Below, piece by piece: positions 1 through 36,980 of a DNA stretch of 36,980 bases (position 1 is the stretch's first letter; every line of letters begins with the position of its first letter). The notes below the pieces were generated by a model. That model saw only the letters and a program-made list of their open reading frames with translations, searched no databases and was not told the DNA's origin. The stretch lies in the IMG/VR virus record IMGVR_UViG_2713896902_000002, positions 1 through 36,980 of that record; one strand, written 5' to 3'. Both the position numbers and the translations under genes were made by a program. Source of the DNA: a virus (taxonomy: Duplodnaviria > Heunggongvirae > Uroviricota > Caudoviricetes).

Positions 1-1005
1 TTAATCCCCCGTGGACACTGCGTGGACACTCACGCCACCTTTCAGCGGATTAAGGACCACCGCATCCTGCAGGTAATCCGGTGCAAAATGTGCATATGCC
101 ATTGTTTGCTGAATGGTTGCGTGGCCAAGAATCTTCTGAAGCGCAATAATGTTTCCTCCGTTCATCACAAAATGGCTGGCGAACGTATGCCGCAGCACAT
201 GTGCAGCCTGGCCTTTTGGTAAATCGGGCTTAACTCTTTTCAGCGCCAGGCAGAATTCCCGGTACTTCACCTCAAACAAGCCGCCTGTTTCTCTGGTTTT
301 GATCGCCTCACAAACTGCCTGCGAAATTGGCACTGTTCTCTTTCGGCCATTTTTGGTTTCAAGAAACGTCACTCGGTTATGAACTATCTGTTCACCACGG
401 AGCTTACAGGCTTCACTCCAGCGCGCTCCAGTGCTTAAACACAAAAGAGCAACACGCCAGTAATCGCCCTCCAGTATATCGAGCAATAACGCAACTTCCT
501 TCTGGGACAGGAAAGCCATTTCTCGCGGGGATACATAAAGAATGGAGATCCCCCTTACCGGATGTTCTGCATCCCAAAGGCCTATTCTTTTCAGAACAGT
601 AAACATGCCGGATAGTCGGTTCATGTACCTGTTAGCAGATGACGGTTTCAATCCAGCAGCTATCTTTTGAGAACGCCACGCGATAATTTTCAGCTTATCA
701 AGATCCATAGCCTGCATATCAGCGCCAAGCTCATTGATTATGTTGCGCAGTTGTTTTCGGTCTTCTTCCGCCTTACGCCTGTGTTGACCGTGATACATCC
801 ACCACAACTCAAGCAAATCATTTAGCGTTCGGCGATCACGGTAGCCCTGTATATATTCCCGCTTTTCAGCGTTCGCCATGATGTAGCGTTCAGTGGCCAC
901 CGCTACCGATTTTTTGTCAAATACCTTACGCACGCGCTTTCCCTTGCGTCCGTTCGGCCTGATGTCCAGCAAATAACGACCATCTTCGAGCTTCTTAATT
1001 GACAT
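1..1005 (-). CDS. int: P2-type tyrosine integrase (ORF extends to 1020; ATG at MSIKKL preferred)
   Basis: Translation MSIKKLEDGRYLLDIRPNGRKGKR... closely parallels remembered P2 Int (MAIKKLDDGRYEVDIRPTGRNGKR...); contains ARWSE, HVLRHTFAS and MAYAHFAP catalytic-region motifs; C-terminus VSVHAVSTGD resembles P2 ESVHTVSTVE. Confidence 0.93.
   Translation of the reverse strand: MSIKKLEDGRYLLDIRPNGRKGKRVRKVFDKKSVAVATERYIMANAEKREYIQGYRDRRTLNDLLELWWMYHGQHRRKAEEDRKQLRNIINELGADMQAMDLDKLKIIAWRSQKIAAGLKPSSANRYMNRLSGMFTVLKRIGLWDAEHPVRGISILYVSPREMAFLSQKEVALLLDILEGDYWRVALLCLSTGARWSEACKLRGEQIVHNRVTFLETKNGRKRTVPISQAVCEAIKTRETGGLFEVKYREFCLALKRVKPDLPKGQAAHVLRHTFASHFVMNGGNIIALQKILGHATIQQTMAYAHFAPDYLQDAVVLNPLKGGVSVHAVSTGD
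11..33. other. candidate attL core (direct repeat partner of 35802..35824), overlapping the int 3' end
   Basis: gtggacactgcgtggacactcac matches gtggtcactgcgtggacacgcac at 35802..35824 at 21 of 23 positions, direct orientation. Confidence 0.45.
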
Positions 1006-1101
1006 TGCGAAGCCCTCCAATGAACCGCTCTACAATTTCTCCAGCCTCTTTCCAGCAATAATCAGACCAGACAAAGAGCAGGTCTAACCAGTTTTCTGGC
1101 C

Positions 1102-1422
1102 TTAGCGGGGTGATTTTTGGTTTGTTTCGATTGAAACCTGATCGCCCTCCGAATCGAAGAAGCCATCAAGAGAGAGAGGCGGAGCTATCTGTCCCGTCGC
1201 AGCATTAGTTTGATTAAACATCACCCAATCCGAATACTTCCGAAAACGAGGATGATTCAAAATCAGGAGTAACGTTTCTCCAGGTATCATTCTTCCCAAT
1301 ATTTCATAATTTTTGAGATTGTTTTGAGATACCCCTGTCACCTCTTCCATCTCTCTACGTGACAATCCCTCTGCCTCTCGAATCAGGCGAAGTTTTTCTC
1401 CAAGGCTTGATTTATGGATCAT
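1102..1422 (-). CDS. C: P2 C-type immunity repressor (alternative GTG start at 1440)
   Basis: Small protein divergent from cox; C-terminal RFRKYSDWVMFNQTNAATGQIAPPL resembles remembered P2 C (QFTKYTLWFMTNQIAPESGQIAPAL). Confidence 0.8.
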   Translation of the reverse strand: MIHKSSLGEKLRLIREAEGLSRREMEEVTGVSQNNLKNYEILGRMIPGETLLLILNHPRFRKYSDWVMFNQTNAATGQIAPPLSLDGFFDSEGDQVSIETNQKSPR

Positions 1423-1440
1423 ATGTGATCTAAACTCCAC

Positions 1441-1537
1441 ACTATTAGGTTACATGTAATACAAAACATTCAAATAGCCCAAATAAGCCTATATAAGCCA
1501 TTTTGGGCCATTTGGACGAATTAAGGAGATTACCACA
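1441..1537. promoter_or_regulatory. divergent Pc/Pe immunity switch region with candidate operator repeats
   Basis: Intergenic region between divergent C and cox; direct repeats AATAAGCC / TATAAGCC and a partial dyad (agcccaaat ... atttgggcc); cox RBS aaggag upstream of ATG 1538. Confidence 0.4.
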
Positions 1538-1825
1538 ATGAGCGAATCAGAGCTTGAGGGGTTCATTCAGGTAGCACCATATCCACTTGAAGCGGTGCCA
1601 TATCAACTATTTGCCAAGATGATTGGTCGCAAAGAATCAACCGTCAGAACCATGATTGACGCTGCAAAGTTACCAACGATTGACTTTGTGAAACCAGGTT
1701 CAGTGAAGACGCGAGCATCAGAAAACTGGGTATATCTGCCAGCATTTAACGCAGGTATGCGCAAAGCGTTTTTTGATCAGCCGAAAGAACGCCGCGATGC
1801 TTGGTTGTTGTGGCTGGGGCTTTAA
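1538..1825 (+). CDS. cox: Cox-like excisionase / transcriptional regulator
   Basis: ENWVYLPAFNAGMRKAF...RDAWLLWLGL resembles remembered P2 Cox (EYWVYLPAWNNGLKLAY...RDGWLMWLGL); divergent from C. Confidence 0.85.
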   Translation: MSESELEGFIQVAPYPLEAVPYQLFAKMIGRKESTVRTMIDAAKLPTIDFVKPGSVKTRASENWVYLPAFNAGMRKAFFDQPKERRDAWLLWLGL

Positions 1826-1831
1826 TCATAA

Positions 1832-2038
1832 ATGACCAGCAATATCACCAGCGCCATTTTGGACCTTGTGTTCCTAGAAGTGGGTGTAATAGCGATTTAT
1901 CTGCTTAGCAAGCTAACAGGACAAAAAGAACGCTTTATTGTTCTCAACGTTCATTACCTCGCCGCTTATGCCAGAGGTCTTTTTCCGATCACCATTGGTG
2001 CGGTGCTCATAGCGTTTGTTATTTGGCTCATCGGGTAG
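1832..2038 (+). CDS. small hydrophobic protein (position-equivalent to P2 orf78)
   Basis: 68-aa ORF immediately after cox, two hydrophobic segments; synteny only. Confidence 0.4.
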   Translation: MTSNITSAILDLVFLEVGVIAIYLLSKLTGQKERFIVLNVHYLAAYARGLFPITIGAVLIAFVIWLIG

Positions 2039-2049
2039 AGGCACGAAAA

Positions 2050-2508
2050 ATGAATAAGCAACAGCGAAATGGCAAGCCCCATAACACGGGATTTCGTCGC
2101 AATTACTTTGAAAATGGGCGTTATGCCGGGGAAGTAAATAGGTACGGAGTTTTTGACATGAAGCAACAGTGCAATTCTTCACAGCAATGCTTCCGCAACG
2201 GGGCGGAACGCCATGCTAACCGTTTCACTACCAGTGCATCGCGTAGCAACTCTCGCTACAGCCTGAGCGAAACACACGCCACACCTGATGGCCATCCCGT
2301 AAAACAAATTGGTGAACACACCTGGCTGATTGAGAAAGCTGGAATCGTGGTTCACAGATGCCAACGCAACCCATTTACCGGAAACCGCATTTTTGCTCTG
2401 AGCAACGGCGACAATCAGTTTGGACAGGATTTCACGTTGTACGAAGCTCTGCGCACGGTTGATCGTCTGCTGCGTGGACAGAATTTCATTAAACAGGCTG
2501 ATTTATAA
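2050..2508 (+). CDS. hypothetical early protein (position-equivalent to P2 gene B)
   Basis: ORF with RBS gagg before ATG 2050; assignment by synteny only (cox - orf - B-position - small orfs - A). Confidence 0.5.
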   Translation: MNKQQRNGKPHNTGFRRNYFENGRYAGEVNRYGVFDMKQQCNSSQQCFRNGAERHANRFTTSASRSNSRYSLSETHATPDGHPVKQIGEHTWLIEKAGIVVHRCQRNPFTGNRIFALSNGDNQFGQDFTLYEALRTVDRLLRGQNFIKQADL

Positions 2509-2518
2509 CAGGTGCTTT

Positions 2519-2797
2519 ATGACCAAAGACCATGCTCAGGGTGTATTTATCCGCTTTATTGATTTTCGCGGTGAGCTGTTGTTGCGCGCATCAGCTATTG
2601 ATGGAGTGGTTCCGGTAGATAAAAGCACGGCCACTTACATTTATCTGAACGGCACACGCCTGACCGTAGAGATTCCATATCAACCCGTATGCGAAATTAT
2701 TAGCGAAGCTGAAAAAGCACGTCAGGTTAATGGCGATAAACCCTATCTCGAAATTATCTGCATGGATTCAGAAGCTGAAATTCAGAAGGCAGATTAA
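2519..2797 (+). CDS. hypothetical early protein
   Basis: ORF beginning MTKDHAQGVFIRFIDFRGELLL; tightly packed after preceding gene. Confidence 0.5.
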   Translation: MTKDHAQGVFIRFIDFRGELLLRASAIDGVVPVDKSTATYIYLNGTRLTVEIPYQPVCEIISEAEKARQVNGDKPYLEIICMDSEAEIQKAD

Positions 2798-2808
2798 AGG
2801 GCGTTGCG

Positions 2809-3051
2809 ATGGATAAAGAATATAAAACTCTCGTCAATAAAGCACTTGAGCGCTTTCATTTTCGCTTAAACGCATCAGGCGCTCATGCTGAACGCGCAGC
2901 CCGAGAGTCATTGACCAGAGCTATCAAGAGTATATACGACACGGCTTTTTACGTTGACGACCCGGACGCGCTCGACGAGCTTTCCGTACTCGTCTGCGCC
3001 GCAGAAAACGGGGACCATATTGAGCCATATAAACTGGGAAATATTGCATGA
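2809..3051 (+). CDS. hypothetical early protein
   Basis: 80-aa ORF, tightly packed in early operon. Confidence 0.5.
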   Translation: MDKEYKTLVNKALERFHFRLNASGAHAERAARESLTRAIKSIYDTAFYVDDPDALDELSVLVCAAENGDHIEPYKLGNIA

Positions 3052-3161
3052 GTATATTTATCTCATGGCTTGTTCTGATTATTTCGGTGGCCTGCACTAT
3101 TGGGGTTATGCGAATTATTAATTCAGTAAAAAAGATTGAACGCTTTTTCACTGAAGAATAA
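3048..3161 (+). CDS. small membrane peptide (37 aa) MSIFISWLVLIISVACTIGVMRIINSVKKIERFFTEE
   Basis: ATGA start/stop overlap with upstream gene; single hydrophobic helix; below the ORF-track length cutoff. Confidence 0.3.
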   Translation: MSIFISWLVLIISVACTIGVMRIINSVKKIERFFTEE

Positions 3162-3247
3162 CCGCGCAAATAAGACTCCAGGTTAAATAAGAAAATGTGA
3201 AAACAATCCGCATTCGCGGAGGTATTCGCACACGCCAAGGAGGCGTA

Positions 3248-3451
3248 ATGGCAATTAAGCATTTTCCTGTCGTTCGTTTCACCTCCAGAGGACGTGAATA
3301 CGAAGTTGACGAACGCCTGATTACCACAATCGACAAACACCGTTCAGAAAAGGATGCACATCACATCTATCTCACTGACGGTACTTACTTCTGCGCCACC
3401 AACGTGGTGCAGGTGAATCTTATCAGACAGGTACAGGAGTCACGCAGATGA
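3248..3451 (+). CDS. hypothetical early protein
   Basis: Strong RBS aggagg before ATG 3248 (MAIKHFPVVRF...); ATGA overlap with next gene. Confidence 0.55.
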   Translation: MAIKHFPVVRFTSRGREYEVDERLITTIDKHRSEKDAHHIYLTDGTYFCATNVVQVNLIRQVQESRR

Positions 3452-3693
3452 CCATTCTGGACTACATCGCTGCCAATCCGGGTTGTAGCGGTGGAGAAAT
3501 CGCCGCAGCACTGAATACACCAACCACAACCATTAATGCGGAGCTACGCCGTCTCTGGCGCAGCGGTTCAGTCATAAGAAAAGAGCGCAAAACAGGCGGT
3601 CGCTTTTCTTATCAGGTAAACCCGATGCCGTTTGGGTGTAGCAACCCACTAACCCAGATGTTCAACCAGCTACTGAGGGAAATCAGAGCATGA
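3448..3693 (+). CDS. small winged-helix-like DNA-binding protein (predicted)
   Basis: 81 aa; MTILDYIAANPGCSGGEIAAALNTPTTTINAELRRLWRSGSV pattern typical of wHTH regulators. Confidence 0.5.
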   Translation: MTILDYIAANPGCSGGEIAAALNTPTTTINAELRRLWRSGSVIRKERKTGGRFSYQVNPMPFGCSNPLTQMFNQLLREIRA

Positions 3694-3834
3694 GCACCTC
3701 CTGCAGCCGGAAACCACGTCGGGCTTCAGCAGCTCATCCGGCAGCAAAACAAACTCCGTTAATTCCTGTTCCGGGCCTTTCCTGCACCTTGCGGCAAGAG
3801 GCCTTCGCACATCTGCAACAAGAGGATTGCCGCA

Positions 3835-4200
3835 ATGATTCTCGCCGAAGACTTTTTTGATTACCTGCTGAAAACCGAGCGCGATTTTGGTATTCGCGTT
3901 CTCGACCGCTATGCAATGTATCTGAAATCACTGCCGGAACAGCAGCTCCCGGACGGCCAGATTGTTATTGACGGGCGCTACATGGTTGGTAGCTGCCAGG
4001 AGGATTACACACTTTCCCGCATCGAAAGCGGCACGCCTTCCGTACTGGGTATTTACCAGCGAACTTCATCTCTGATTGCTGATGTAATTGCTGACAGCAT
4101 TCGCATAACACACCGTTATGCCAGCACAGAGAGCACCATGCAGGAAATCCAGCGGCTGGCTACCGTCTGCCACAATGCACTGAGCGGAAAGACGGAGTAG
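3835..4200 (+). CDS. hypothetical early protein
   Basis: 121-aa ORF with RBS gagga; immediately precedes gene A. Confidence 0.5.
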   Translation: MILAEDFFDYLLKTERDFGIRVLDRYAMYLKSLPEQQLPDGQIVIDGRYMVGSCQEDYTLSRIESGTPSVLGIYQRTSSLIADVIADSIRITHRYASTESTMQEIQRLATVCHNALSGKTE

Positions 4201-4205
4201 TCGGC

Positions 4206-7028
4206 GTGGCAACGGAGTACATCAGAGACTGGCAACAACCACGCCATGCAGTCGGTCGCGAGGGGACGGGGGAGCCTGTCCGTCCCTCCCTTCTTTCTTC
4301 CTGGCTGGATGCCTACCGGGCAGAGAACGAGCGCCGCCAGGAAATGGCTGATGCGGCGTTCTCTGCCGCACCGCTGGGCAATCTGATTAATAAAAGCCTG
4401 GACGCACAGGAAAAACAGGACAAAGCCATCACACTGGCAAGAGAAGCCAGAAAACAGGCACGCGGCGCGGTGGATGAAGCAATTGCCGCACTACGTCTGC
4501 TGCCGTCCTATCTGCGTGATCCGCTTATCCGCCATCTCTCTTTCCTGCGCAAAAAACAGGAATCCGATCGTCAGAAAGGCAAAAAGAGCTGGCAGGCTGA
4601 ACGCTACGCGCGCGGAACCCTGCGCAAAATATTCGAACGTCTGGAGCGCACCGACAGACGCTGGCTGACACCGGGTTATCGCTCCCTTGCCGGGCGTGAA
4701 CGCCTGGATGATTTACTTTACCTGCCGCAACTCAACAAACACCAGATACAGACGCTGGCCGTCATGACAGCGGCGATGTTCAGCAGCACCTTCGAAAAAC
4801 TCTGCGATGACTTTGGCGCGACCGATGGCGAGCTGACCATGGATATAACGCTGAAGGCGTATCAGATGCTGGCCCGCATGGCGTTACATCTGCACACAGT
4901 GCCGCCGCATTATGACGCACTGACAACAGACAAAGACCGGAAGAACGAACCGGACACGGAGCTGCTGCCGGGTGCAATCCTCCGCCTGACCTGTGCGGAC
5001 TGGTGGAAACGCAAATTGTGGCTTTTACGTTGCGAATGGAGAGAGGAACAACTCCGCGCTGCCTGTCTGGTTTCCAGAAAAACATCGCCCTATCTGAGTC
5101 AGGAGGCATTAAGTGAATTTCGCGCACAGCGCGAGAAAACACGCGATTTCCTGAAAAGTTTCATGCTGGAAAATGAAGACGGGTTCACGATTGATCTCGA
5201 GACGGTGTATTACGCGGGAGTAAGTAACCCGGTCCACCGTAAGGCAGAAATGATGGCCACCATGAAGGGACTGGAACTTCTGGCCGAAGCCCGTGGCGAC
5301 AGAGCGGTATTTCTGACCGTTACCTGTCCGTCAAAATATCACGCAACAACGGAGAACGGTCATCCGAATCCCAAATGGAACGGCGCCACCATGCGCGATT
5401 CCAGCGATTACCTGGTTAACACTTTTTTTAAGGCGGTCCGCAAAAAACTGAATCGCGACGGCCTGCGCTGGTATGGCATCCGCACGGTGGAGCCACACCA
5501 TGACGGCACCGTGCACTGGCACATGATGGTCTTTGCACATCCTGAAGAAATCGACAGCATCGTGGACATCACCCGTGATATTGCCATTCGCGAAGACCGC
5601 CACGAGCTGGGCAATGACATAACTCCGCGCTTTAAGGCAGAGTACGTCGACGGTTCGAAAGGTACGCCGACCAGCTACATCGCCACCTACATCGGAAAGA
5701 ACCTGGACAGCCGCGCCGTGGATGGCATTGACCCGAAAACAGGCAAGCCACGCGTTGATCACGAAACCGGAAAATCAATGGCCGAGAGCGTGGAACGCGC
5801 CATCGGCTGGGCGCGCCTTCACCGCGTCCGCCAGTTCCAGTTCTTTGGTATCCCCTCCCGTCAGGTATGGCGTGAACTCCGCCGCCTTGCCAGTCAGATG
5901 GCCCGCAACCCGGAAGGTCCACAACGTCTGGAAAATGACGCAATGGATGCGGTACTCGCTGCCGCTGATGCCGGGTGTTTTGCCACCTACATTGAGAAAC
6001 AGGGTGGCGTACTTGTTCCACGCAAGGATTACCTGATTCGCACCGCCTACGACCTCGCAGAAGAGCTGAACGATTACGGCGAGCAAAGCGTACAGATTTA
6101 CGGGATCTGGTCGCCACAAATCGGGGAATCTTCCCGCGTGTGCACGCACCCGGATAACTGGAAGCTGGTAAGACGTAAACCGGAAGCGGAAGACAGCGCC
6201 AACGAAAATGGTTTTGACCTTCAGGGCGGCCCTGCCGCCCCTTGGACTCGTGGCAATAACTGTCCCCGTGTACAGGAAACGAACAACAACGGGACAGAAC
6301 AGCCGGAAGAACGGCCAGCACCGTGGCCGCAGCTCCCTGATGGCGTTGAAGTGAACGAATGGATGCGCTCACTGAAACGGCACGAACGCCGGGCGCTGAT
6401 GCGTTCGCTTCGTGACAAACAGGCAAAAAACAGCAGTGATGAAATGCAGAGCTGGACACAGAGCCGCAAACAGCAGCGGCCTTTGCCTGATAACCACGAA
6501 TTACTCGCTAAAGAATGGCGGGAATCTGCCGAATCTCTCGGCCTGCATATCGGTGAACAGCAGATGCAGCACCTGTTACGGGGCGGCAGCCTGTACGTTG
6601 ACGGCAGCATCATTGCACCGCAGGGATTTGAAATTGTACGCAAACCGGATACCCGCCCGGACAGCCGAATCACGCAGCTCTGGCAGCGCCTGAGCCGTAA
6701 TCACGGCGTAAGCAGCACAGAGATCCGCCATAACCCGGTCGCCAGCTATCTGGAACAACTGGGGGCATCAGACCCCGAAGCCGCCGCACGTCTGGCATCC
6801 ACACTTCAGCAGGACCAGAACACCATGAAAACCCCCGTTACCGTGTTTTCTGACATGCTGCGCGCCATCCGTGACGCAGAGCACGCACAGAGAATCAGTG
6901 AAACCACTGAACGCGCCCACCGCAAAGCAGACCTGCTGCGGGGTAGCCTGACCAGTGGAAACAAAAAACAGACAGAAACGGGACTCACAAATCCCGTAAA
7001 TGAGCAAAAAACGCGCCGCGATATATGA
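4206..7028 (+). CDS. A: P2 gpA-family rolling-circle replication initiator (HUH endonuclease), GTG start, extended C-terminus
   Basis: 940-aa ORF; HUH motif in GTVHWHMMVF and tyrosine-containing YIATYIGKN; position after early genes as in P2. Confidence 0.88.
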   Translation: MATEYIRDWQQPRHAVGREGTGEPVRPSLLSSWLDAYRAENERRQEMADAAFSAAPLGNLINKSLDAQEKQDKAITLAREARKQARGAVDEAIAALRLLPSYLRDPLIRHLSFLRKKQESDRQKGKKSWQAERYARGTLRKIFERLERTDRRWLTPGYRSLAGRERLDDLLYLPQLNKHQIQTLAVMTAAMFSSTFEKLCDDFGATDGELTMDITLKAYQMLARMALHLHTVPPHYDALTTDKDRKNEPDTELLPGAILRLTCADWWKRKLWLLRCEWREEQLRAACLVSRKTSPYLSQEALSEFRAQREKTRDFLKSFMLENEDGFTIDLETVYYAGVSNPVHRKAEMMATMKGLELLAEARGDRAVFLTVTCPSKYHATTENGHPNPKWNGATMRDSSDYLVNTFFKAVRKKLNRDGLRWYGIRTVEPHHDGTVHWHMMVFAHPEEIDSIVDITRDIAIREDRHELGNDITPRFKAEYVDGSKGTPTSYIATYIGKNLDSRAVDGIDPKTGKPRVDHETGKSMAESVERAIGWARLHRVRQFQFFGIPSRQVWRELRRLASQMARNPEGPQRLENDAMDAVLAAADAGCFATYIEKQGGVLVPRKDYLIRTAYDLAEELNDYGEQSVQIYGIWSPQIGESSRVCTHPDNWKLVRRKPEAEDSANENGFDLQGGPAAPWTRGNNCPRVQETNNNGTEQPEERPAPWPQLPDGVEVNEWMRSLKRHERRALMRSLRDKQAKNSSDEMQSWTQSRKQQRPLPDNHELLAKEWRESAESLGLHIGEQQMQHLLRGGSLYVDGSIIAPQGFEIVRKPDTRPDSRITQLWQRLSRNHGVSSTEIRHNPVASYLEQLGASDPEAAARLASTLQQDQNTMKTPVTVFSDMLRAIRDAEHAQRISETTERAHRKADLLRGSLTSGNKKQTETGLTNPVNEQKTRRDI

Positions 7029-7104: not shown

Positions 7105-8064
7105 ATGAAAATTTGTATCGACGACGGCTCCACCAACATCAAGCTGGCATGGACTGAGAACGGCGAACGCAGCAACGCCATCAGCCCGAACAGCTTCAAG
7201 TCGGAATGGTCTGCGCCGTTCGGTGGCACGCAGCCCGCGAACTACATGCTTGATGGCGTGCGCTATGGTTTTGATCCGGTCAGCGATCGCTTTGTCCAGA
7301 CGACCGACACGCAATACCAGTACAGCGATGTGAATGTAATCGCCATTCACCACGCGCTGGTCAAATCAGGCATCACACCACAGGAAGTGGATGTGGTTGT
7401 CACCCTGCCACTGAGCGAATATTTCGACACAAACGCACAGCCGGACATGGCCAACATCAACCGCAAAAAAGCGAACGTTATGCGCCCGGTGGAGTACCAG
7501 AACGGCAAAGCATTCACTATCCGTAACGTACGGGTTATGCCTGAATCCATTCCGGCTGGCTTTAAAGCACTGGCTGACATGAGTCCGTTTGAATCCCTGC
7601 TGATTGTGGATTTAGGCGGAACCACGCTGGATGTGGCAAAGGTTCAGGGACAACTGGCAGGTATCAGCCAGGTGTTTTGCGATCCACACGTAGGCGTTTC
7701 CCTGATGGCCGATGCCGTACTGTCGGTGATGGCCACTAACGGTATGCGTACCAGCCACCACATCGCCAATACCATTATCGAACATCGCCATGATGAAGCC
7801 TGGCTGCGCCAGCACATCCACAATGACGCGCATTACGACAACCTGATGGCGGTTATTCGTGAAAAGGAAGAAACACTGAAACAACGCGTGATCCGCGCGC
7901 TGGCGGTTTTTTCGGGTTACGGGCGGGTGATGGTTGTCGGTGGAGGGGCGGAGATTGTGGCACCCGCTATCCGCAAAGCCTGCGGAGTTAATGCGACTTT
8001 CATCGCGGACGGGGTGCCACAGTATGCTCTGGTTAATGGGCTGTACGCAATGGACAAGGAGTAA
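7105..8064 (+). CDS. parM: ParM/StbA-family actin-like segregation ATPase
   Basis: MKICIDDGSTNIKLAW...YQYSDVNVIAIHHAL...VMPESIPAGF...LIVDLGGTTLDV...VMVVGGGAEI tracks remembered plasmid R1 ParM (MLVFIDDGSTNIKLQW...WQYSDVNVVAVHHAL...VMPESIPAGY...LIIDLGGTTLDI...VMVIGGGAEI). Confidence 0.85.
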   Translation: MKICIDDGSTNIKLAWTENGERSNAISPNSFKSEWSAPFGGTQPANYMLDGVRYGFDPVSDRFVQTTDTQYQYSDVNVIAIHHALVKSGITPQEVDVVVTLPLSEYFDTNAQPDMANINRKKANVMRPVEYQNGKAFTIRNVRVMPESIPAGFKALADMSPFESLLIVDLGGTTLDVAKVQGQLAGISQVFCDPHVGVSLMADAVLSVMATNGMRTSHHIANTIIEHRHDEAWLRQHIHNDAHYDNLMAVIREKEETLKQRVIRALAVFSGYGRVMVVGGGAEIVAPAIRKACGVNATFIADGVPQYALVNGLYAMDKE

Positions 8065-8068
8065 ACCA

Positions 8069-8380
8069 ATGACGACACCAACCAGACGGATAAGTTTCTA
8101 TCTGAAGCCTGCGGCCGTCAAGAACGAAAGCGAAGCATGCGCCTGGCTGGACAGCCTTACACCAGAAGCCCGCAAAAGCGGCCAACGCGTGGCTTTTCTG
8201 GCCGGGCTGGCACTTCTGAAAATGGATCCAGCAGAGGCTTACCGACTGGCTGCATGGGCTGACGATGAGGCGTTATCTGTGACACAAACCAGGACAGAAC
8301 GCCCCGTGTCACAGCCAGTACCAACCGCACAGATAACCAGTCAGATGGCCGGAAATATCCGGGCGCTATTTCCTGAGTAA
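8069..8380 (+). CDS. parR: ParR-like ribbon-helix-helix centromere-binding protein
   Basis: RBS caaggag then ATG 8069; RRISFYLKPAAVKNE...LDSLTPEARKSGQRVAFLAGLALLKMDP...IRALFPE resembles remembered R1 ParR (RRTIAFKLNPDVNQ...LDSIPQGERSRLNRAALTAGLALYRQDP...LRSLFPKE). Confidence 0.7.
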   Translation: MTTPTRRISFYLKPAAVKNESEACAWLDSLTPEARKSGQRVAFLAGLALLKMDPAEAYRLAAWADDEALSVTQTRTERPVSQPVPTAQITSQMAGNIRALFPE

Positions 8381-8386
8381 GCAGAG

Positions 8387-8407
8387 CCAGGGCGGAAACC
8401 GCCCTGG
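8387..8407 (+). terminator. perfect stem-loop ccagggcgg-aaa-ccgccctgg after parR (no T-tract)
   Basis: 9-bp perfect stem directly after parR stop; no U-run, so intrinsic terminator function uncertain. Confidence 0.35.
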
Positions 8408-8561
8408 ATGTAATCAGCAGAGAGTGTGAACCCACACCACATCACGCTCCATGAAATTTGCATAATTTAACTATGATTTTTGCAACTCTCCATTCATAAT
8501 GTTAGTAATAATTAACCAATCTAAACCCATAAGAGCCACCATTGTTAAATTCAGGTGACGT

Positions 8562-9707
8562 ATGAACATTCAACAGCGTATAGCAGAACGCTTGGTTCAG
8601 GCCAGAAACGACGCAGGAATGAGTGCAAGCGCCGTCGCAGATGCGATCGGTGTTGTTCGTCAAACCTACAGTAAGTTTGAGCAGGCGCTAGGCGTCCCAA
8701 GCGTTACCCAACTCATCATGCTCTGCAAGATTTTCGATAAGCCTATCGGGTATTTTTATGAGCAAGATGATGGCGAGTTTCGTTTTGCAATGCGAGCAGA
8801 TAGTCCGGATTTGTTGGATGCCAAACTTCGCAATGAGTTGATTGAAAAGTTAAAAAATATCAATGCAATTGAGGAAGCTGCTGATGCTAATTTGCCAGAA
8901 GATCTTCCTAACTCAATGCCTATTTTTACCGCCAAAGCAGAAGATTTGCGAAGAGTCGAAGATAAGGCTATGGAAGAACGTTTCCGTCTTGGTATAGGAA
9001 ACGCTACTTGCGTTGGTGACATTGTAGCCATTTTGGAAGCATCGGATATTCGAGTAATCCCGTTCAATCGCGAAGAAACCGATAAAGGGATGGTATTCGG
9101 ATTTTCTGCGTTTTCGAACAAATACGGTACCGCGATTTATGTAAATGTTCACGATAGCATTTCAATAGAACGTCAAATCTTCAGTATTTGCCATGAATAT
9201 GCTCATCTTATCTTCCACCGTGATGAGTATGATGGCCCTGCTAAAAGCTATAAAACCAATGGCAAAGCAATTTCACCGGAAGAAAAAGTTGCTAATCACT
9301 TTGCTGCTTGTTTTTTGGTACCAGAAAGCGCATTGCGAAAACAATTCGTCATGCAAGGTGGTGGATGGGCGTATGAGGAAACCGTCCTTAGACTAAAAAG
9401 CATTTTCAGAGTATCAGCCACTTGCATCATCGATCGTCTTAGTAAATGTAATTTAATTAATCAACAAAACACTAGATACCTATGGGCAACCGCCAATCGT
9501 AAAGGTTGGAAGAGACACGAGCCAAATCCCATTAGGGAAGCACTAAATTATAAAGGCCGCCTAACCGTCTTATCGCGTAAAGCATGGGAAGCCGGTTCCG
9601 CGTCGGAAACCTTCATATCTGAACTTTTAGAATTAGACAGAAAAGCTCTCAGCAATCTTCTGGATGAATGGTACGACGAACAGGAGGCCGGAGAGGATGC
9701 CGTTTGA
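8562..9707 (+). CDS. Xre-family HTH fused to ImmA/IrrE-type (M78-like, COG2856) zinc metallopeptidase
   Basis: N-terminal HTH (MNIQQRIAERLVQARNDAGMSASAVADAIGVVRQTYSKFEQALGVPSVTQL); HEXXH in SICHEYAHLIFH; AT-rich upstream region, RBS aggtga; visibly AT-richer than flanking phage genes. Confidence 0.8.
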   Translation: MNIQQRIAERLVQARNDAGMSASAVADAIGVVRQTYSKFEQALGVPSVTQLIMLCKIFDKPIGYFYEQDDGEFRFAMRADSPDLLDAKLRNELIEKLKNINAIEEAADANLPEDLPNSMPIFTAKAEDLRRVEDKAMEERFRLGIGNATCVGDIVAILEASDIRVIPFNREETDKGMVFGFSAFSNKYGTAIYVNVHDSISIERQIFSICHEYAHLIFHRDEYDGPAKSYKTNGKAISPEEKVANHFAACFLVPESALRKQFVMQGGGWAYEETVLRLKSIFRVSATCIIDRLSKCNLINQQNTRYLWATANRKGWKRHEPNPIREALNYKGRLTVLSRKAWEAGSASETFISELLELDRKALSNLLDEWYDEQEAGEDAV

Positions 9708-10215
9708 ATGCCCCAGATGTGTTATCGATACGAATGTACTGTCTGATTTTTACGAAGGTAAATGCTTAGATCTTATCTGGCAAATTTACCCGGGTGGTGT
9801 GTGGATTGACCCCTATGTCTGCGAGGAACTAAAAGCTAAATACAATCTTGATGTTCAGGAACAGCTTACACGCCTGCAACTTCCATACAATTTCACCAAT
9901 GATTACGAACCTGAACATTTTATTGAAATGGCTGAGATAAAAAATCGCAGGAGAGCATTGAAGTATGCGGACATAAGCTGCGTTGTTAACGCGAGAATAC
10001 ATGATGCAACATGTCTTTCGGCGGATAATGCGGTTTATAAAACGTGTGCGGAACGCGGTGTAAAAGCCGCCCGCCACGGAGGGCTACTTCAAGAGGCTGT
10101 GCGCAGGAGACTTATCCACAAACAACAAGCCTTAATGCATTTCCAATTTTTCCTAGATCGTGGGTTAACGATGAAATCTTCTGTTCGAGAACAGATTCTT
10201 GCCAGTTTCGAATGA
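9697..10215 (+). CDS. PIN-like domain nuclease (predicted effector/toxin); alternative start 9664
   Basis: Start overlaps end of the HTH-peptidase gene (RBS caggagg); N-terminal VIDTNVL strand with Asp, later ADISCVVNARIHDATCLSADNAVY fitting the PIN D..IAA.A...L.T.D pattern. Confidence 0.55.
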   Translation: MPFECPRCVIDTNVLSDFYEGKCLDLIWQIYPGGVWIDPYVCEELKAKYNLDVQEQLTRLQLPYNFTNDYEPEHFIEMAEIKNRRRALKYADISCVVNARIHDATCLSADNAVYKTCAERGVKAARHGGLLQEAVRRRLIHKQQALMHFQFFLDRGLTMKSSVREQILASFE

Positions 10216-24381: not shown

Positions 24382-24915
24382 ATGATGCATTTAAAAAATA
24401 TCAAATCAGGAAACCCCAAAACCGTAGAACAATATGAATTAACACGACAATTTGGCGTTGTCTGGTTGTATTCTGATGACGGTAGAAACTGGTATGAGGA
24501 ACAGAAAAACTTTCAGGAAGATACAATAAAATTTGCTTACACTGCCGATGGAATCATTGTGGCTATAGATAAGGATGTATCGACAATTAATCCTGAAGGT
24601 TTAAGCGTTGTTGAGGTTCCTGATATTACAGCCAATAGGCGGGTCGATATTTCTGGTAACTGGATGTTCAAAGATGGCGCAGTGATAAAGCGGGAATATA
24701 CCGAAGAAGAACAGAGACAACAGGCGGAAAATGAGAAGCAAAATCTGTTACAACTCGTCAGGGATAAAACTCAGCTATGGGATTCTCAGCTACGACTTGG
24801 AATTATTTCTGCTGAGAACAAACAAAAATTGACCGAGTGGCTGCTCTACGCGCAGAAAGTGGAGTCTACGGATACCTCTGTCCTGCCAGTAACGTTTCCC
24901 GAACAACCAGAATGA
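24382..24915 (+). CDS. G: tail fibre assembly chaperone G (within invertible segment)
   Basis: [21 protein letters not shown]...; paralogous to the oppositely oriented G' copy. Confidence 0.85.
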   Translation: MMHLKNIKSGNPKTVEQYELTRQFGVVWLYSDDGRNWYEEQKNFQEDTIKFAYTADGIIVAIDKDVSTINPEGLSVVEVPDITANRRVDISGNWMFKDGAVIKREYTEEEQRQQAENEKQNLLQLVRDKTQLWDSQLRLGIISAENKQKLTEWLLYAQKVESTDTSVLPVTFPEQPE

Positions 24916-24942
24916 GAGAAGGCCCGCATCGGGCCTTAATTT

Positions 24943-25470
24943 TTACTCTGGTTTTTGTGGCCATTCTGGCTTTGCCGTATCCACGCGGCTGACCAGAACG
25001 CTGTAGCGTTCCCAGGCTTCCAGTCGTGTACGTTCCTCATCTGTTGCCATATTCAGCCTGACAGCACGTTCCAGAAGCTGGATGACTGATTCAGCTTCTG
25101 AAAGTAACGCGGCCTTTTGTGATTCGGCCTGTTGTTGCTGTTCGTCTGCTGTATAAATCCGCTTAACCACAGTTCCGTCCTTAAACACCCACTTCCCTGA
25201 ATCATCGGCACGACGATTGGCTGTTATATCGGGAATCTCAACGACGCTAAAGCCTTCGGGATTAAGTGTTGAGGCATCTTTGGTTATGGCAACAATAATA
25301 TTATTTTCGTCGTATACAATCTTTATGGTGTCGTCCTGAAAGTTATTTACTTCCTCATACCAGTTTTTACCGTCTTCGGACCATAACCAGATAACATCAA
25401 AAATTTTTGTTAGCTGATATTGTTCTTTTGTTTTTGGATTTCCGGACTTAATATTTTTTAAATGCTGCAT
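24943..25470 (-). CDS. alternative tail fibre assembly chaperone G' (opposite orientation)
   Basis: [21 protein letters not shown]..., paralog of G, convergent with it. Confidence 0.8.
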
Positions 25471-25473
25471 AAT

Positions 25474-26334
25474 TTACACCTGTGCGACGTTATACCATGT
25501 GCCATTGATGTATTTTTGTATTGGTCTGAAGATGGCTTCATCATCGCCATCTACTTCACCAATGATTCTTAATCCGGTAATTGCGTGTCCGGCTTTTTCA
25601 TAACGACCACCACGCGCCATCAATTGAACAACACGCGTACCCAGGCGAACATCTTTTACATAGCGTGAATCAAAATTCCCCCAGTTGCTGGGCTGTATCT
25701 GACCGTTAACAGAAAATATTACCGAGTTATCTGTATTTCGCTGGCTATAGAAATGCCATCCTGCCTCATCGCCTAACTCTGCAACTACTGGACGGGTTGA
25801 AGCACCCCATAAATTAAACGTTGCATTCTTTGTGGAGGTGTTGGAGCTGGATAGCGAGAACTTTTTACTATCACCTGCCTGAATGTTTTTAAAAGCAATA
25901 GCAACTCCATTCTGAAAGCGGAATACTCGCTGACTATTAGCGTAAACATCCAGAATACCATCACCATTCTGTTTGAATCCGGTGTCATTATCACCAAGAA
26001 CAATAGAGCTACCACCTAACGCATTCGTCGTACCAACTCCAAGACTGCCATTAATGACGGCATTTACCAGAATATTTAGTGCATCCCATTTCAGCGTCAT
26101 CAGGTCTTTTGTTGTGGTGCTCTGGCGGCTTCTCCATTTGAAATATTCATTGCCGTTATCTCCCGTTTCAAACCACATGAATGAATCGGTGTCACCATCG
26201 GCATCATTTTTAAATCCAATCTTTGCCCAGTCAGTATTTCGAATCCAGGCAAGAATTGAGTCGTTTTCAAAAGTAAGTCCACCGGACAAGGTATCGCCTG
26301 TCTTTTGGACGGCGTTACCAGCCTTGTTTACCGT
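25474..26334 (-). CDS. alternative variable C-terminal tail fibre segment H'v (silent; no start of its own)
   Basis: Minus-strand ORF begins at the crossover with ...LGLQETVNKAG... matching H; ends ...YINGTWYNVAQV like the H terminus ...CINGTWYNAGSI. Confidence 0.7.
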   Translation of the reverse strand, partial: TVNKAGNAVQKTGDTLSGGLTFENDSILAWIRNTDWAKIGFKNDADGDTDSFMWFETGDNGNEYFKWRSRQSTTTKDLMTLKWDALNILVNAVINGSLGVGTTNALGGSSIVLGDNDTGFKQNGDGILDVYANSQRVFRFQNGVAIAFKNIQAGDSKKFSLSSSNTSTKNATFNLWGASTRPVVAELGDEAGWHFYSQRNTDNSVIFSVNGQIQPSNWGNFDSRYVKDVRLGTRVVQLMARGGRYEKAGHAITGLRIIGEVDGDDEAIFRPIQKYINGTWYNVAQV

Positions 26335-33531: not shown

Positions 33532-33960
33532 CTATACATTTATCCCATCCTGCAAAATCTCAACCACTTCAAATTCCTCTGCAATCAATTCCATATCTTC
33601 AGAAAAATAGCCTTCTCGGACAAAAAATCGCTGATGCTCTTTCTGCCAGTATTCAAGGCTTAAATCTCCTTCGCCTTCTTTGCGGGCAAACACCTCAGTG
33701 ACATCGCAAAAACGCACTAATCGCATTGAAACTAACCGGATTACACAGACAGGAACATTCTGACCATCAAGAATAATGCTATAGTTTCCAATCTTAGGGG
33801 CAGATTCATCCTGCAAATAAGAGATTAAAGAACCACAGGAGGCTGTTTTAACCCCTTTTTTTATCAAGCCAGCAAGCTCGCTAGCCAACTCAGGACTGTC
33901 CCCCATTTGCCAAGCATCTGCACCAGGGTATTTTCTTTTTATTTCCTCAATCGTAACCAT
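33532..33960 (-). CDS. ASCH (PUA-like) domain protein, AT-rich moron; ORF extends to 33978
   Basis: C-terminal FARKEGEGDLSLEYWQKEHQRFFVREGYF pattern typical of ASCH; opposite strand to D/ogr; visibly AT-richer. Confidence 0.55.
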   Translation of the reverse strand: MVTIEEIKRKYPGADAWQMGDSPELASELAGLIKKGVKTASCGSLISYLQDESAPKIGNYSIILDGQNVPVCVIRLVSMRLVRFCDVTEVFARKEGEGDLSLEYWQKEHQRFFVREGYFSEDMELIAEEFEVVEILQDGINV

Positions 33961-34174
33961 TACCACCCTCTTACACATCTATGAAAAGAAATATTGTACT
34001 GTTTTAGCATGTTCCACACCTACATTACCAATAACGATTTTACCCAGATAACGAGGCCTGTCATTCGCTCAATGCAAACCATCAGATTTGGTTGTTCTAG
34101 TTACGTAAACTATTAGTTGGAGTCTGAGCTGGTGCAACTTAAAATAGCAATATTAGCATGTTAAGGGGGTTTCC

Positions 34175-34435
34175 ATGTTTCGTTGTCCGCTTTGTGGCGC
34201 ATCTGCCAGAATACGCACCAGTCGTTCGGAAAATGATTCAGATACCGTACGGAAAAAATATTACCAGTGTAACAACCTGGAATGCGGCGTATCTTTCACC
34301 ACACTGGAAGCCTTCGACAAATTCACATCCAGACACGCCCCCGGCGTCCACTCTTCAGAGGGCATCCCGTGGAATGAGCTGCCAGCTTCGCACAGGGGAA
34401 GCAGTCAGATGAGTTTGCCATTACCTCATAACTGA
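34175..34435 (+). CDS. ogr: Ogr/Delta-type zinc-finger late-gene activator
   Basis: MFRCPLCGASARIRTSR...KYYQCNNLECGVSFTTLEAF resembles remembered P2 Ogr (MFHCPLCQHAAHARTSR...RYHQCQNVNCSATFITYES); Cys4 arrangement; RBS aaggggg. Confidence 0.85.
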   Translation: MFRCPLCGASARIRTSRSENDSDTVRKKYYQCNNLECGVSFTTLEAFDKFTSRHAPGVHSSEGIPWNELPASHRGSSQMSLPLPHN

Positions 34436-34581
34436 CAGCAGGGAGAAATACGGGAGAACCCCAAATAAGGCAGGGATGCAGGAAGATCGCATAAAAAAAC
34501 AAACATAATGTTTTATTTTGAGCATTAATAATATTATTTTCTCAGGTAAGAGTTCAGTACTAATAAAAATATGAGGAGCGC

Positions 34582-34719
34582 ATGTCATCCAACAATATAT
34601 TTATTCTCATTATCTGCATAATTATAACCCTTTCCATATGGATATTATACGGTTCACTGTGCGAATTAAGAGCGCTCATGTGGGGAGACGAGTTTACAGA
34701 TTTTTTGCAATGCAAATAA
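34582..34719 (+). CDS. Hok/Gef-family-like small membrane toxin (45 aa)
   Basis: MSSNNIFILIICIIITLSIWILYGSLCELRALMWGDEFTDFLQCK: N-terminal TM helix then SLCELR and EF..FL, comparable to Hok KSLCEIR...EVAAFM; RBS gaggag. Confidence 0.4.
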   Translation: MSSNNIFILIICIIITLSIWILYGSLCELRALMWGDEFTDFLQCK

Positions 34720-34992
34720 TAAGAAAGCGAATAATATAAGGTTCGCTCTTACAATTGCATAATTTAACTAAAAAAAATCGCCATACTCCGCTATTTTCGC
34801 AACACGCGGGATTGTCGGGGTGTTCCAAAAGAGATAGATTACGCACGGGTGCCTTTCGGCTGATGGCTGGAGGGAATACCCGAAGGCCGGATGTGGAAAG
34901 GCCCCGGAAAACATCTCTGTTTAACCGAGGCCCTGACCATCTACCCTAAGCAAGTGATAGGTTAGCGCCTCCCCGAAAAAGGAGCAAGCGCT

Positions 34993-35133
34993 ATGTCGCA
35001 AAAATCGCTTACGGCCATCACGTTCTGCGTGACGGTAATCCTCATCATCTGGATGCTGCACGGTTCGCTATGTGAAATACGGATGAGCTTCTGGGGAGCG
35101 GAGTTTGCGGCGTTCTTACAGTGTAAGCAGTAA
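34993..35133 (+). CDS. Hok/Gef-family-like small membrane toxin (46 aa), paralog of 34582..34719
   Basis: MSQKSLTAITFCVTVILIIWMLHGSLCEIRMSFWGAEFAAFLQCKQ: exact SLCEIR motif; RBS aaggag; GC-rich structured leader upstream. Confidence 0.45.
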   Translation: MSQKSLTAITFCVTVILIIWMLHGSLCEIRMSFWGAEFAAFLQCKQ

Positions 35134-35269
35134 GGAAACCGCGACGGGGGAGCAATCCCCCGTCAATCGGTTGCCAGGGTAAGGCCGAAATGGCACCCAA
35201 ATTTAAATTGAGGCCCATCAGTAAAAAGAGGTGGGCTTAACGCTTGTTTAAATTTGAAAGGAACTCTTT

Positions 35270-35566
35270 ATGAGTGAAATGGTATTTTGTCGCGGATGCG
35301 GCAAGGAAATACATAAAGATGCCACATCTTGCCCCAATTGTGGAGCACCTCAAAGAACAGCAAGTTCAAAAAGCAGAATAACAGCCGCACTACTGGCTTT
35401 CTTTTTAGGTGGTCTTGGCGCACACAAATTTTATTTAGGTAAAGTGGGGCAAGGATTTCTTTACCTTATTTTTTGCTGGACATTCATCCCGGCAATCGTG
35501 GCTTTTATTGAGTTTTTTATCTATCTGTGCACCTCAGATGAAGATTTCGCCCGCAAATACGGCTGA
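35270..35566 (+). CDS. zinc-ribbon plus TM2-domain membrane protein
   Basis: N-terminal CxxC-x-CPNC zinc ribbon (CRGCGKEIHKDATSCPNCG) followed by LLAFFLGGLGAHKFYLGK, a TM2-domain signature. Confidence 0.6.
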   Translation: MSEMVFCRGCGKEIHKDATSCPNCGAPQRTASSKSRITAALLAFFLGGLGAHKFYLGKVGQGFLYLIFCWTFIPAIVAFIEFFIYLCTSDEDFARKYG

Positions 35567-35592
35567 CACCTAACGGACGAATCAGAATGACA

Positions 35593-35624
35593 AACCCGCA
35601 GCGTAAAACTGCGGGTTTTCTTTT
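35593..35624 (+). terminator. rho-independent terminator (aacccgcag-cgtaaaa-ctgcgggtt + T-rich tail)
   Basis: 9-bp stem then ttttctttt directly after the TM2 gene. Confidence 0.75.
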
Positions 35625-35801
35625 GGTCCCCCCCTCACTAATGAGGGCACCATTCATAAGCAATAAGCATAACAAATCAATTTGTTATCATATCGGCAGC
35701 ATTAACCACATAGGAGGCGCCGCAAATGATGCAAAATATACGATGCAAAAATTGCAACGAACCATAAGACAAAGCCCGCAATGCTGCGGGCTTACTCTAC
35801 C

Positions 35802-35824
35802 TCTCGAAAATGTGGTCACTGCGT
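35802..35824. other. candidate attR core (direct repeat partner of 11..33)
   Basis: gtggtcactgcgtggacacgcac; 21 of 23 identical to 11..33; preceded by perfect hairpin aagcccgca-atgc-tgcgggctt (35771..35792). Confidence 0.45.
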
Positions 35825-35996
35825 GGACACGCACTGATATAAATCCTTTTATATCAATAAATTAAATCAACATCTTTTTCATCAACAAGGATTTTCACGT
35901 TTGTGGTACCTGTATGAGACGAGAGTTAACCAAACAAGTGTGCCATAATCTCGCGCCCAGGCATACTTGCGATGATTTCAGGTATAAGGATACATA

Positions 35997-36980
35997 ATGA
36001 TACAACCTATTTCCGGCCCTCCTCCCGGGCAACTGCCAGACCGGGAAAACAGCGCAGGCAATCAGCCTTTATCCAGTCTGCAACGTACCGCCCTGGAAAG
36101 CTTGATGACCAAAGTAACCTCGCTGACGCAACAACAGAGAGCGGAGTTATGGGCCGGCATCAAACACGACATCGGCCTGCCAGGCGATTCACCTTTACTC
36201 TCGCGCCACTTCCCCGCTGCGGAACATAACCTCGCGCAACGTCTGCTTGCCGCGCAAAAGAGCTATTCTGCTCGTCGGCTTTTAGCCCAGTTAGGGGAAT
36301 ATTTACGGTTGGGAAATAACCGTCAGGCGGTTACGGATTACATCCGAAATAACTTTGGTCAGACACCGCTTAACCAACTCTCGCCAGAACAATTAAAGAC
36401 CATTCTTAACCTGTTACAGGAAGGGAAAATGGTTATTCCTCAACCACAGCAACGTCAGGCTACCGATCGTCCTTTATTACCGGCGGAGCATAATACGCTT
36501 AAACAACTGGTGACTAAACTCGCCGCGGCGACAGGGGAACCCAGCAAGCAGATCTGGCAGTCGATGCTGGAGCTTTCTGGTGTGAAAGATGGCGAACTAA
36601 TCCCGGCAAAACTGTTTAACCATCTGGTCACCTGGTTGCAGGCGCGTCAGAGCTTAAGCCAACAAAATACCCCGACGCTGGAATCGCTTCAGATGGCGCT
36701 AAAGAAACCGCTGGATACCAACGAGCTGGCAGCACTATCTGCGTATATCGAGCAAAAATATGGCCTTTCCGCGCAATCCGTCCTTTCTTCTGTACAGGCT
36801 GAGGATATCCTGAACCAGCTCTATCAACGGCGGGTTAAAGGGATTGATCCACGAGACATCCAGCCACTGCTCAATCCCTTTCCACCATTAATGAACACAT
36901 TGCAAAATATGGCGACACGTCCCAGCGTGTGGATTTTGTTAGTCGCCATCCTCATCATGCTGGTCTGGCTGGTACGTTAA
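35997..36980 (+). CDS. flk: host flagellar regulator Flk (C-terminally membrane-anchored)
   Basis: MIQPISGPPPGQ... with Gln-rich body and C-terminal hydrophobic anchor WILLVAILIMLVWLVR, as in enterobacterial Flk; identification from memory. Confidence 0.65.
   Translation: MIQPISGPPPGQLPDRENSAGNQPLSSLQRTALESLMTKVTSLTQQQRAELWAGIKHDIGLPGDSPLLSRHFPAAEHNLAQRLLAAQKSYSARRLLAQLGEYLRLGNNRQAVTDYIRNNFGQTPLNQLSPEQLKTILNLLQEGKMVIPQPQQRQATDRPLLPAEHNTLKQLVTKLAAATGEPSKQIWQSMLELSGVKDGELIPAKLFNHLVTWLQARQSLSQQNTPTLESLQMALKKPLDTNELAALSAYIEQKYGLSAQSVLSSVQAEDILNQLYQRRVKGIDPRDIQPLLNPFPPLMNTLQNMATRPSVWILLVAILIMLVWLVR

Follow-up and report, generated by a model that had tools for sequence, protein, structure and literature searches.

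The two 23-base repeats near the ends of the window, meaning here the whole analysed stretch of 36,980 nucleotides, are very probably the P and P' arm-type sites of a heterobivalent P2-type integrase, flanking a separate 20-bp att core; this assignment draws on homology to the annotated sites of phage P2 and on position. The core, TTTTCATCAACAAGGATTTT, is present as its attR copy at 35876..35895 (plus strand) and is identical in attL, attR, attB (of the E. albertii type strain and E. coli K-12) and attP of phage Chuche. The window was identified as a P2-like prophage, in which genes for an HTH repressor and cox adjoin int. The int gene (1..1005, minus strand) codes for a P2-type tyrosine integrase of 334 amino acids with the Pfam domains Int_N and Phage_integrase. 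At the other end, an ogr/delta-type late activator gene is present (34175..34435, plus strand; Pfam Ogr_Delta, 3.7e-16), and the host gene flk, assigned by homology to host genomes, forms the right host arm (35997..36980, plus strand).

Direct comparison revealed that the left copy at 11..33 (GTGGACACTGCGTGGACACTCAC) is matched in direct orientation at 21 of 23 bases by the sequence at 35812..35834 (GTGGTCACTGCGTGGACACGCAC). A first-pass annotation of this DNA had reported the same degree of identity, but had placed the right copy at 35802..35824, which is off by 10 and agrees at 3 of 23 bases in register. The similarity of the two 23-mers ends exactly at their edges on both sides. In an exhaustive diagonal scan, this was the only direct pair with at least 21 of 23 identical bases in the window, while no such pair was obtained in 12 first-order Markov surrogates; the motif GTGGWCAYTGYGTGGAC occurs at two places in the window, which are the two copies, with 0.03 expected. 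This indicated that the repeat is real and not a product of chance. The pair is absent from the top 20 families of a general repeat finder run on the window, so it was verified by the direct comparison and the diagonal scan. Each 23-mer consists of two GTGG(A/T)CA(C) units with a start-to-start spacing of 11 bp, corresponding to one helical turn.

The left copy is the predicted P' arm-type Int-binding site (11..33, plus strand) and contains two direct GTGGACAC units at 11..18 and 22..29, with a spacing of 11 bp. As noted before, it encodes the last Int residues: it is embedded in the last codons of int on the minus strand, where it encodes GVSVHAVST of the C-terminal sequence ..GVSVHAVSTGD*. 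The right copy corresponds to the predicted P arm-type Int-binding site (35811..35834, plus strand), with TGTGGTCAC at 35811..35819 and GTGGACAC at 35823..35830. It lies 163-185 bp upstream of flk, the ATG of which is located at 35997, in agreement with the earlier estimate of about 170 bp. The perfect hairpin that had been seen before the right copy was also found, with 18 bp in between; it has a 9-bp stem (35772..35793, terminator-like on the minus strand, -18.8 kcal/mol, z = -3.1) and closes the cargo region immediately left of the conserved P arm. The stretch from the P arm to the core contains a perfect IHF-consensus site, TATCAATAAATTA (35852..35864, plus strand). With four matches in the window compared to 1.5 expected, the match to the IHF consensus is weak evidence taken alone; the site lies inside the block AAATCCTTTTAT(A/T)TCAA, which is common to the annotated IHF-protected region of P2.

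In P2 (NC_001895), the order of elements is ogr, a terminator, the Int P arm at 24293-24320, IHF, the attP core, the Cox sites and the Int P' arm at 24470-24496. According to the RefSeq annotation, this P' arm is located within the int coding sequence (24462-25475). The order terminator, P arm, IHF, core and P' arm is shared by P2 and the window, and in both the P' arm begins 8-10 nt from the int end, inside the coding sequence. The arms themselves are nearly identical, the P arm being TGTGGTCAATGTGTGGAC in P2 and TGTGGTCACTGCGTGGAC in the window, and the P' arm TGTGGACACTGTGTGGACAC in P2 and CGTGGACACTGCGTGGACAC in the window. The AAATCCTTTTAT.TCAA block is common to both, and the P2 terminator just before the P arm occupies a position equivalent to that of the hairpin at 35772..35793. 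The cores, in contrast, are unrelated (27 bp, AAAAAATAAGCCCGTGTAAGGGAGATT, in P2; TTTTCATCAACAAGGATTTT in the window). Core and P' arm are separated by about 190 bp in this phage and by about 87 bp in P2. In P2, ogr is the last gene before attP and immediately adjacent to the P arm, whereas about 1.4 kb of cargo separates the two in the window.

For P2-type integrases, the arm sites have been described (Nilsson 2011) as two or more direct repeats of the type tgTGGaCa to either side of the core, and this pattern was found on both sides of the core in the attP reconstructed for the window prophage. The reconstructed attP of 398 bp contains exactly four GTGG(A/T)CA heptamers, in one orientation and arranged in two pairs. 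The P side carries the units GTGGTCA and GTGGACA, and the P' side carries GTGGACA twice; all units have the same orientation, and the spacing is 11 bp. For the P arm, the window was aligned with P2, two free phages and five E. coli relatives that differ in cargo. Here, the arm units and the AAATCCTTTTAT.TCAA block were invariant, while the cores of P2 and of the window group were unrelated. The P arm is kept in all relatives regardless of their cargo, and the region from 35803 to the core forms a conserved unit.

These comparisons also bear on two other explanations. The repeat is short and its left copy is coding, which would fit a repeat that arose by chance or from coding constraint and does not take part in recombination. 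Such an origin is highly improbable, since the pair is the sole one at its level of identity, with none in the surrogates and an expectation of 0.03 for the motif, since the non-coding right copy is kept across different cargo and as far as P2, and since position and order agree with the annotated sites of P2. Because the P' copy lies in coding sequence, constraint on the SVHxVST tail of the protein could account for part of its conservation. Over 23 bases, the right copy is similar to the int 3' end, and might be read as what remains of an earlier integration, with a fragment of a second int 3' end left by a tandem or decayed prophage. This is even less probable: the similarity does not extend one base past the 23-mer on either side, the same layout is found in the active sequenced phages P88_4B11, Chuche and P2, and all relatives keep the region from 35803 to the core as one conserved unit.

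The arm-site assignment is consistent with the sequence of the integrase. Over the full length, the window Int is 50% identical to P2 Int, with 30 of 45 residues identical in the N-terminal arm-binding region (residues 1-45). Both proteins have the conserved tail SVH(A/T)VST, which is encoded by the P' arm units. In lambda attP, the heterobivalent Int binds the arm-type sites P1, P2 and P'1-3, which are separate from the core (PMC3448106). As proposed for the window prophage, a separate N-terminal domain binds the arms, bending by IHF bridges them to the core, and integration splits the arms between attL and attR (PMC3448106). Lambda differs from the window in the arm consensus and in the number and layout of the sites, its arms are not inside int, and Xis/Fis are used rather than Cox. 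The sequence GRYxxDIR is kept in the window Int and fits the Y/D/R discriminators (PMC3448106), if the numbering of the alignment is offset by 5. With respect to Cox, P2 contains annotated Cox sites, whereas the search for P2-type cox boxes (TTAAASNCM) in the P' spacer, which lies outside the window, and in the Pc/Pe region gave scattered, isolated one-mismatch matches and no array. The Cox protein of this phage may recognise a different box from that of P2. Shortly after the int stop codon, the P' spacer contains an inverted repeat (GATACTGAA...TTCAGTATTG, window coordinates of about -65..-30), which could be an int terminator or a protein-binding site.

The left end of the prophage was reached in GCA_005404225.1 (Escherichia albertii), found by an exact match to the Int protein, which is identical to window 1..7005 (7005 bases) and continues leftward. 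Beyond the int end, it carries the remainder of pdxB. The attL copy of the 20-mer TTTTCATCAACAAGGATTTT is located at window coordinates -201..-182, outside the window, and is identical to the copy at 35876..35895. Inspection of the sequence left of base 1, which had been proposed as a check of the earlier reading, revealed that the host arm begins past this 20-mer and not at the 23-mer. When the two host arms were joined through one core copy, 814 of 820 positions were identical to the pdxB-flk region of NBRC 107761, the E. albertii type strain, with no indel; the six differences are all SNPs and lie away from the junction. The empty site of NBRC 107761 contains a single core copy in pdxB codons 2-7, and the phage genes are absent. 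An empty site with a single core copy upstream of flk had been anticipated, and it exists; however, the core in it is TTTTCATCAACAAGGATTTT and not the 23-mer. From the core rightward (778 bases available), the window is 99.5% identical to NBRC 107761. In E. coli K-12, pdxB (minus strand) directly abuts flk, and attB is identical to that of E. albertii. Homology of K-12 to the window starts at about 35876, within TTTTCATCAACAAGGATTTTCAC, which represents the GTG start and codons 2-7 of pdxB on the minus strand.

As judged from the junction sequences and the reconstructed empty site, the host is E. albertii, the true att core is the 20-mer TTTTCATCAACAAGGATTTT, and attL lies outside the window. 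The integrated unit comprises 36,077 bp and is located within the 5' end of pdxB. At attR, the orphaned 5' end of host pdxB (35854..35898, minus strand) consists of the native GTG and codons 2-7, fused to phage DNA (MKILVDEKDVDLIY*). At attL, a phage Shine-Dalgarno sequence and a TTG codon are in frame with pdxB (GGAG-N7-TTG; also written GGAGCC-N-TTG), and pdxB is called as 385 amino acids in lysogens versus 378 amino acids in K-12.

Both attP and attB contain a crossover core in a single copy. In the free phages P88_4B11 and Chuche, both 23-mers were identified in a single molecule, about 290 bp apart and flanking the core TTTTCATCAACAAGGATTTT; one lies about 41 bp before the core and the other about 190 bp after it, inside the int 3' end. 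In the empty pdxB-flk sites of NBRC 107761 and K-12, the 23-mer was not found, and TTTTCATCAACAAGGATTTT alone is present. With two copies in attP and none in attB, the 23-mer is not such a core, and the boundaries of the prophage lie at the 20-mer instead; the 23-mers are located 192 bp (left) and 41 bp (right) inside the host/prophage boundaries. The int 3' end lies 182 bp inside the prophage and is the same in free phages and in the prophage, including the stop codon. Since it is unchanged in attP, the C-terminus of Int is phage-encoded, which is at variance with its proposed completion by host DNA. A location of the att core directly after ogr was also considered and rejected: the host junction is at 35876..35895, and homology, judged between cargo variants and with free phages, runs through hok to the P arm.

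The same core has been described for phage PhiSM. Magaziner et al. 2019 (PMC6456863) mapped its 17-bp core, ATCCTTGTTGATGAAAA, experimentally to a position 6 bp inside pdxB. In the same work, a phage-borne TTG start and Shine-Dalgarno sequence were described as rescuing pdxB, and growth of lysogens on minimal medium was shown (PMC6456863). Window 35876..35892, inside the 20-mer TTTTCATCAACAAGGATTTT, is the reverse complement of ATCCTTGTTGATGAAAA. On the DNA level, int of the window is 97.4% identical to that of PhiSM, 96% to that of P88_4B11 and 91% to that of Chuche, with PhiSM, P88_4B11 and PhiR44_2 in the range of 96-98% and the pdxB-integrating group as a whole in that of 91-97%. PhiSM from Citrobacter rodentium and the Xuanwuvirus group (P88, P88_4B11, PhiR44_2 and Chuche) are pdxB integrators like the window prophage, with the same core, the same TTG/Shine-Dalgarno rebuild of pdxB, the same arm sites and the same P' spacer. 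The host differs, being Escherichia albertii for the window and C. rodentium for PhiSM, and the identity block at the Escherichia attB is 20 bp, compared to the 17 bp reported for PhiSM. A related integrase gene, mostly with 95-99% DNA identity, was found in 326 of 5426 complete E. coli genomes.

The reading of the first-pass annotation, by which the 23-mer is the att core, with prophage ends near 11 and 35834 and an Int C-terminus that host DNA completes, accounts for a significant direct repeat close to both prophage ends but is refuted, and the least credible of all, in view of two copies in free phage DNA and none in the empty attB of NBRC 107761 and K-12, boundaries that map to the 20-mer at -201..-182 and 35876..35895, an int 3' end that is unaltered in attP, and a published core for the near-identical PhiSM integrase that is the pdxB 17-mer.

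Within the core, strand exchange would fall between about 35882 and 35892, as estimated from two related sequences. In E. coli CMZE027, position 6 of the core is a phage-type C at attR (TTTTCCTCAACAAGGATTTT), as in attP of P88_4B11, and the host A at attL, which maps the crossover to the right of this position. The E. coli plasmid p720632_86 (L005, about 3990..4092) contains a Zn-ribbon/TagO cargo followed by the P arm and core positions 1-17. Homology ends there, and unrelated DNA with a truncated topoisomerase-repeat gene is present after core nt 17. This segment looks like the remnant attR of an integration at a secondary site with the 17-mer. Another sequence with an Escherichia-type attR (P arm, core and pdxB start) at its end is a 4.2-kb contig from a metagenome-assembled genome labelled 'Planococcaceae bacterium' (Firmicutes), which is probably a contamination or the result of mis-binning.

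With the 23-mers as arm-type sites, the circular attP would contain, in order, the P arm, 41 bp with the IHF site, the core TTTTCATCAACAAGGATTTT, 192 bp, and the P' arm in int. The junction predicted by the arm-site model would read ...GTGGTCACTGCGTGGACACGCAC-41 nt-TTTTCATCAACAAGGATTTT-TAACCC...-192 nt in all-GTGGACACTGCGTGGACAC... (int end). By homology with P2 and lambda, the N-terminal domain of Int would bind the arm sites, and the core-binding and catalytic domains would act on the core. IHF would bend the P arm, so that one Int could bridge arm and core, and Cox would work on the P' side for excision. Recombination of attP with the identical 20-bp attB in pdxB codons 2-7 would split attP, with the P' arm and int going to attL and the P arm to attR. 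Once split in this way, the arm sites would resemble a direct repeat at the prophage ends. At attL, pdxB would be rebuilt with the TTG start and the Shine-Dalgarno sequence that the prophage supplies. While the positions, copy numbers, junctions and the homology to P2 are observed, Int binding, IHF binding and the position of strand exchange are predictions from them.

The arrangement of P and P' arms is already annotated in P2, and the pdxB core and the phage-supplied pdxB start have already been published for PhiSM. The practical value of the present assignment lies in correct annotation, and it does not imply new biology. The terminal direct repeat that stands out most in a P2-like prophage can consist of the integrase arm sites and not of the crossover core. 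Boundary calls made from the best terminal repeat can be tens to hundreds of bases off, and can suggest spurious gene fusions.

Between ogr and the P arm, the window contains three cargo genes on the plus strand, a first hok-like ORF (34582..34719), a second, Hok/Gef-type ORF identified by Pfam (34993..35133), and a gene for a zinc-ribbon/TM2 protein (35270..35566; Pfam). Both hok-like ORFs and the TM2 gene, like ogr, are absent from the empty pdxB-flk site of NBRC 107761; since they lie between attL and attR, they are prophage cargo. The earlier view of these genes as phage cargo was thus confirmed, but the end of the prophage is not at about 35824 as assumed, because the core at 35876..35895 lies about 50-70 bp further. 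As an argument against this origin, the first-pass annotation had named related strains that retain the cargo beside flk in the absence of the prophage; in COL60J, AH21B066 and CMZE027, phage genes were found beside the cargo. CMZE027 was at first considered as a case of prophage-less cargo, with RES/Zn-ribbon/TagO genes beside flk and without ogr, and was rejected when a wider view revealed a complete prophage from int to ogr. The second hok with its leader was found in free phage genomes, and the TM2 gene is present in the same slot in the prophage of E. coli COL60J. Deposited phage genomes contained neither the TM2 gene nor the first hok-like ORF, both of which were found in prophages only.

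The slot 34440..35800, between the conserved hok and the P arm, appears as a site of cargo exchange, with homology resuming at about 35795-35803. TM2 and zinc-ribbon cargo is present in the window and in E. coli COL60J, Zn-ribbon and TagO in AH21B066 and P88_4B11, a RES toxin with Zn-ribbon and TagO in CMZE027, and Com with a DNA methyltransferase in phage Chuche. Compared to the Xuanwuvirus group, with its Zn-ribbon/TagO or Com/methyltransferase genes, the window differs in carrying TM2 and the extra hok-like ORF between hok and the P arm. The conserved region from about 35795-35803 to the core may serve as a fixed right anchor, at the left of which unrelated cassettes are swapped in. Int could also exert feedback on its gene through the P' units in the last int codons; these units are conserved both as DNA and as SVHxVST between two Ints that are just 50% identical. 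A joint reading, in which a P-arm-anchored hotspot with new cargo is combined with Int feedback via the P' arm, is a speculative proposal and rather unlikely to hold. If the hotspot reading were true, the zinc-ribbon/TM2 protein and the additional hok-like ORF would represent new cargo for superinfection exclusion or defence. Neither proposal has a bearing on the att core claimed for the 23-mer.

The hok-like ORF at 34582..34719 is about half identical, as judged by eye, to the second Hok, and scores 18.8 bits compared to a Pfam cutoff of 22 bits. It is located in a patch of 35% GC (within 34440..34800) that is missing from the E. coli relatives and from deposited phage genomes. Between gpD and ogr, a gene for an ASCH-domain protein was identified on the minus strand (33532..33978; Pfam 1.9e-22). 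In the E. coli relatives, the gpD-ogr position is occupied by an unrelated hypothetical gene of 1023 nt, which suggested a second variable slot. Further cargo (7105..10215) follows the replication gene, where P2 has tin/old. It consists of the genes for a ParM-like actin (7105..8064), an RmrA-like protein with HTH and M78 peptidase domains (8562..9707; PADLOC RmrA, 2.8e-35), and a PIN-domain protein (9664..10215), the last of which overlaps the RmrA-like gene. The RmrA-like and PIN genes may form a Rosmer-like toxin-antitoxin or defence pair.
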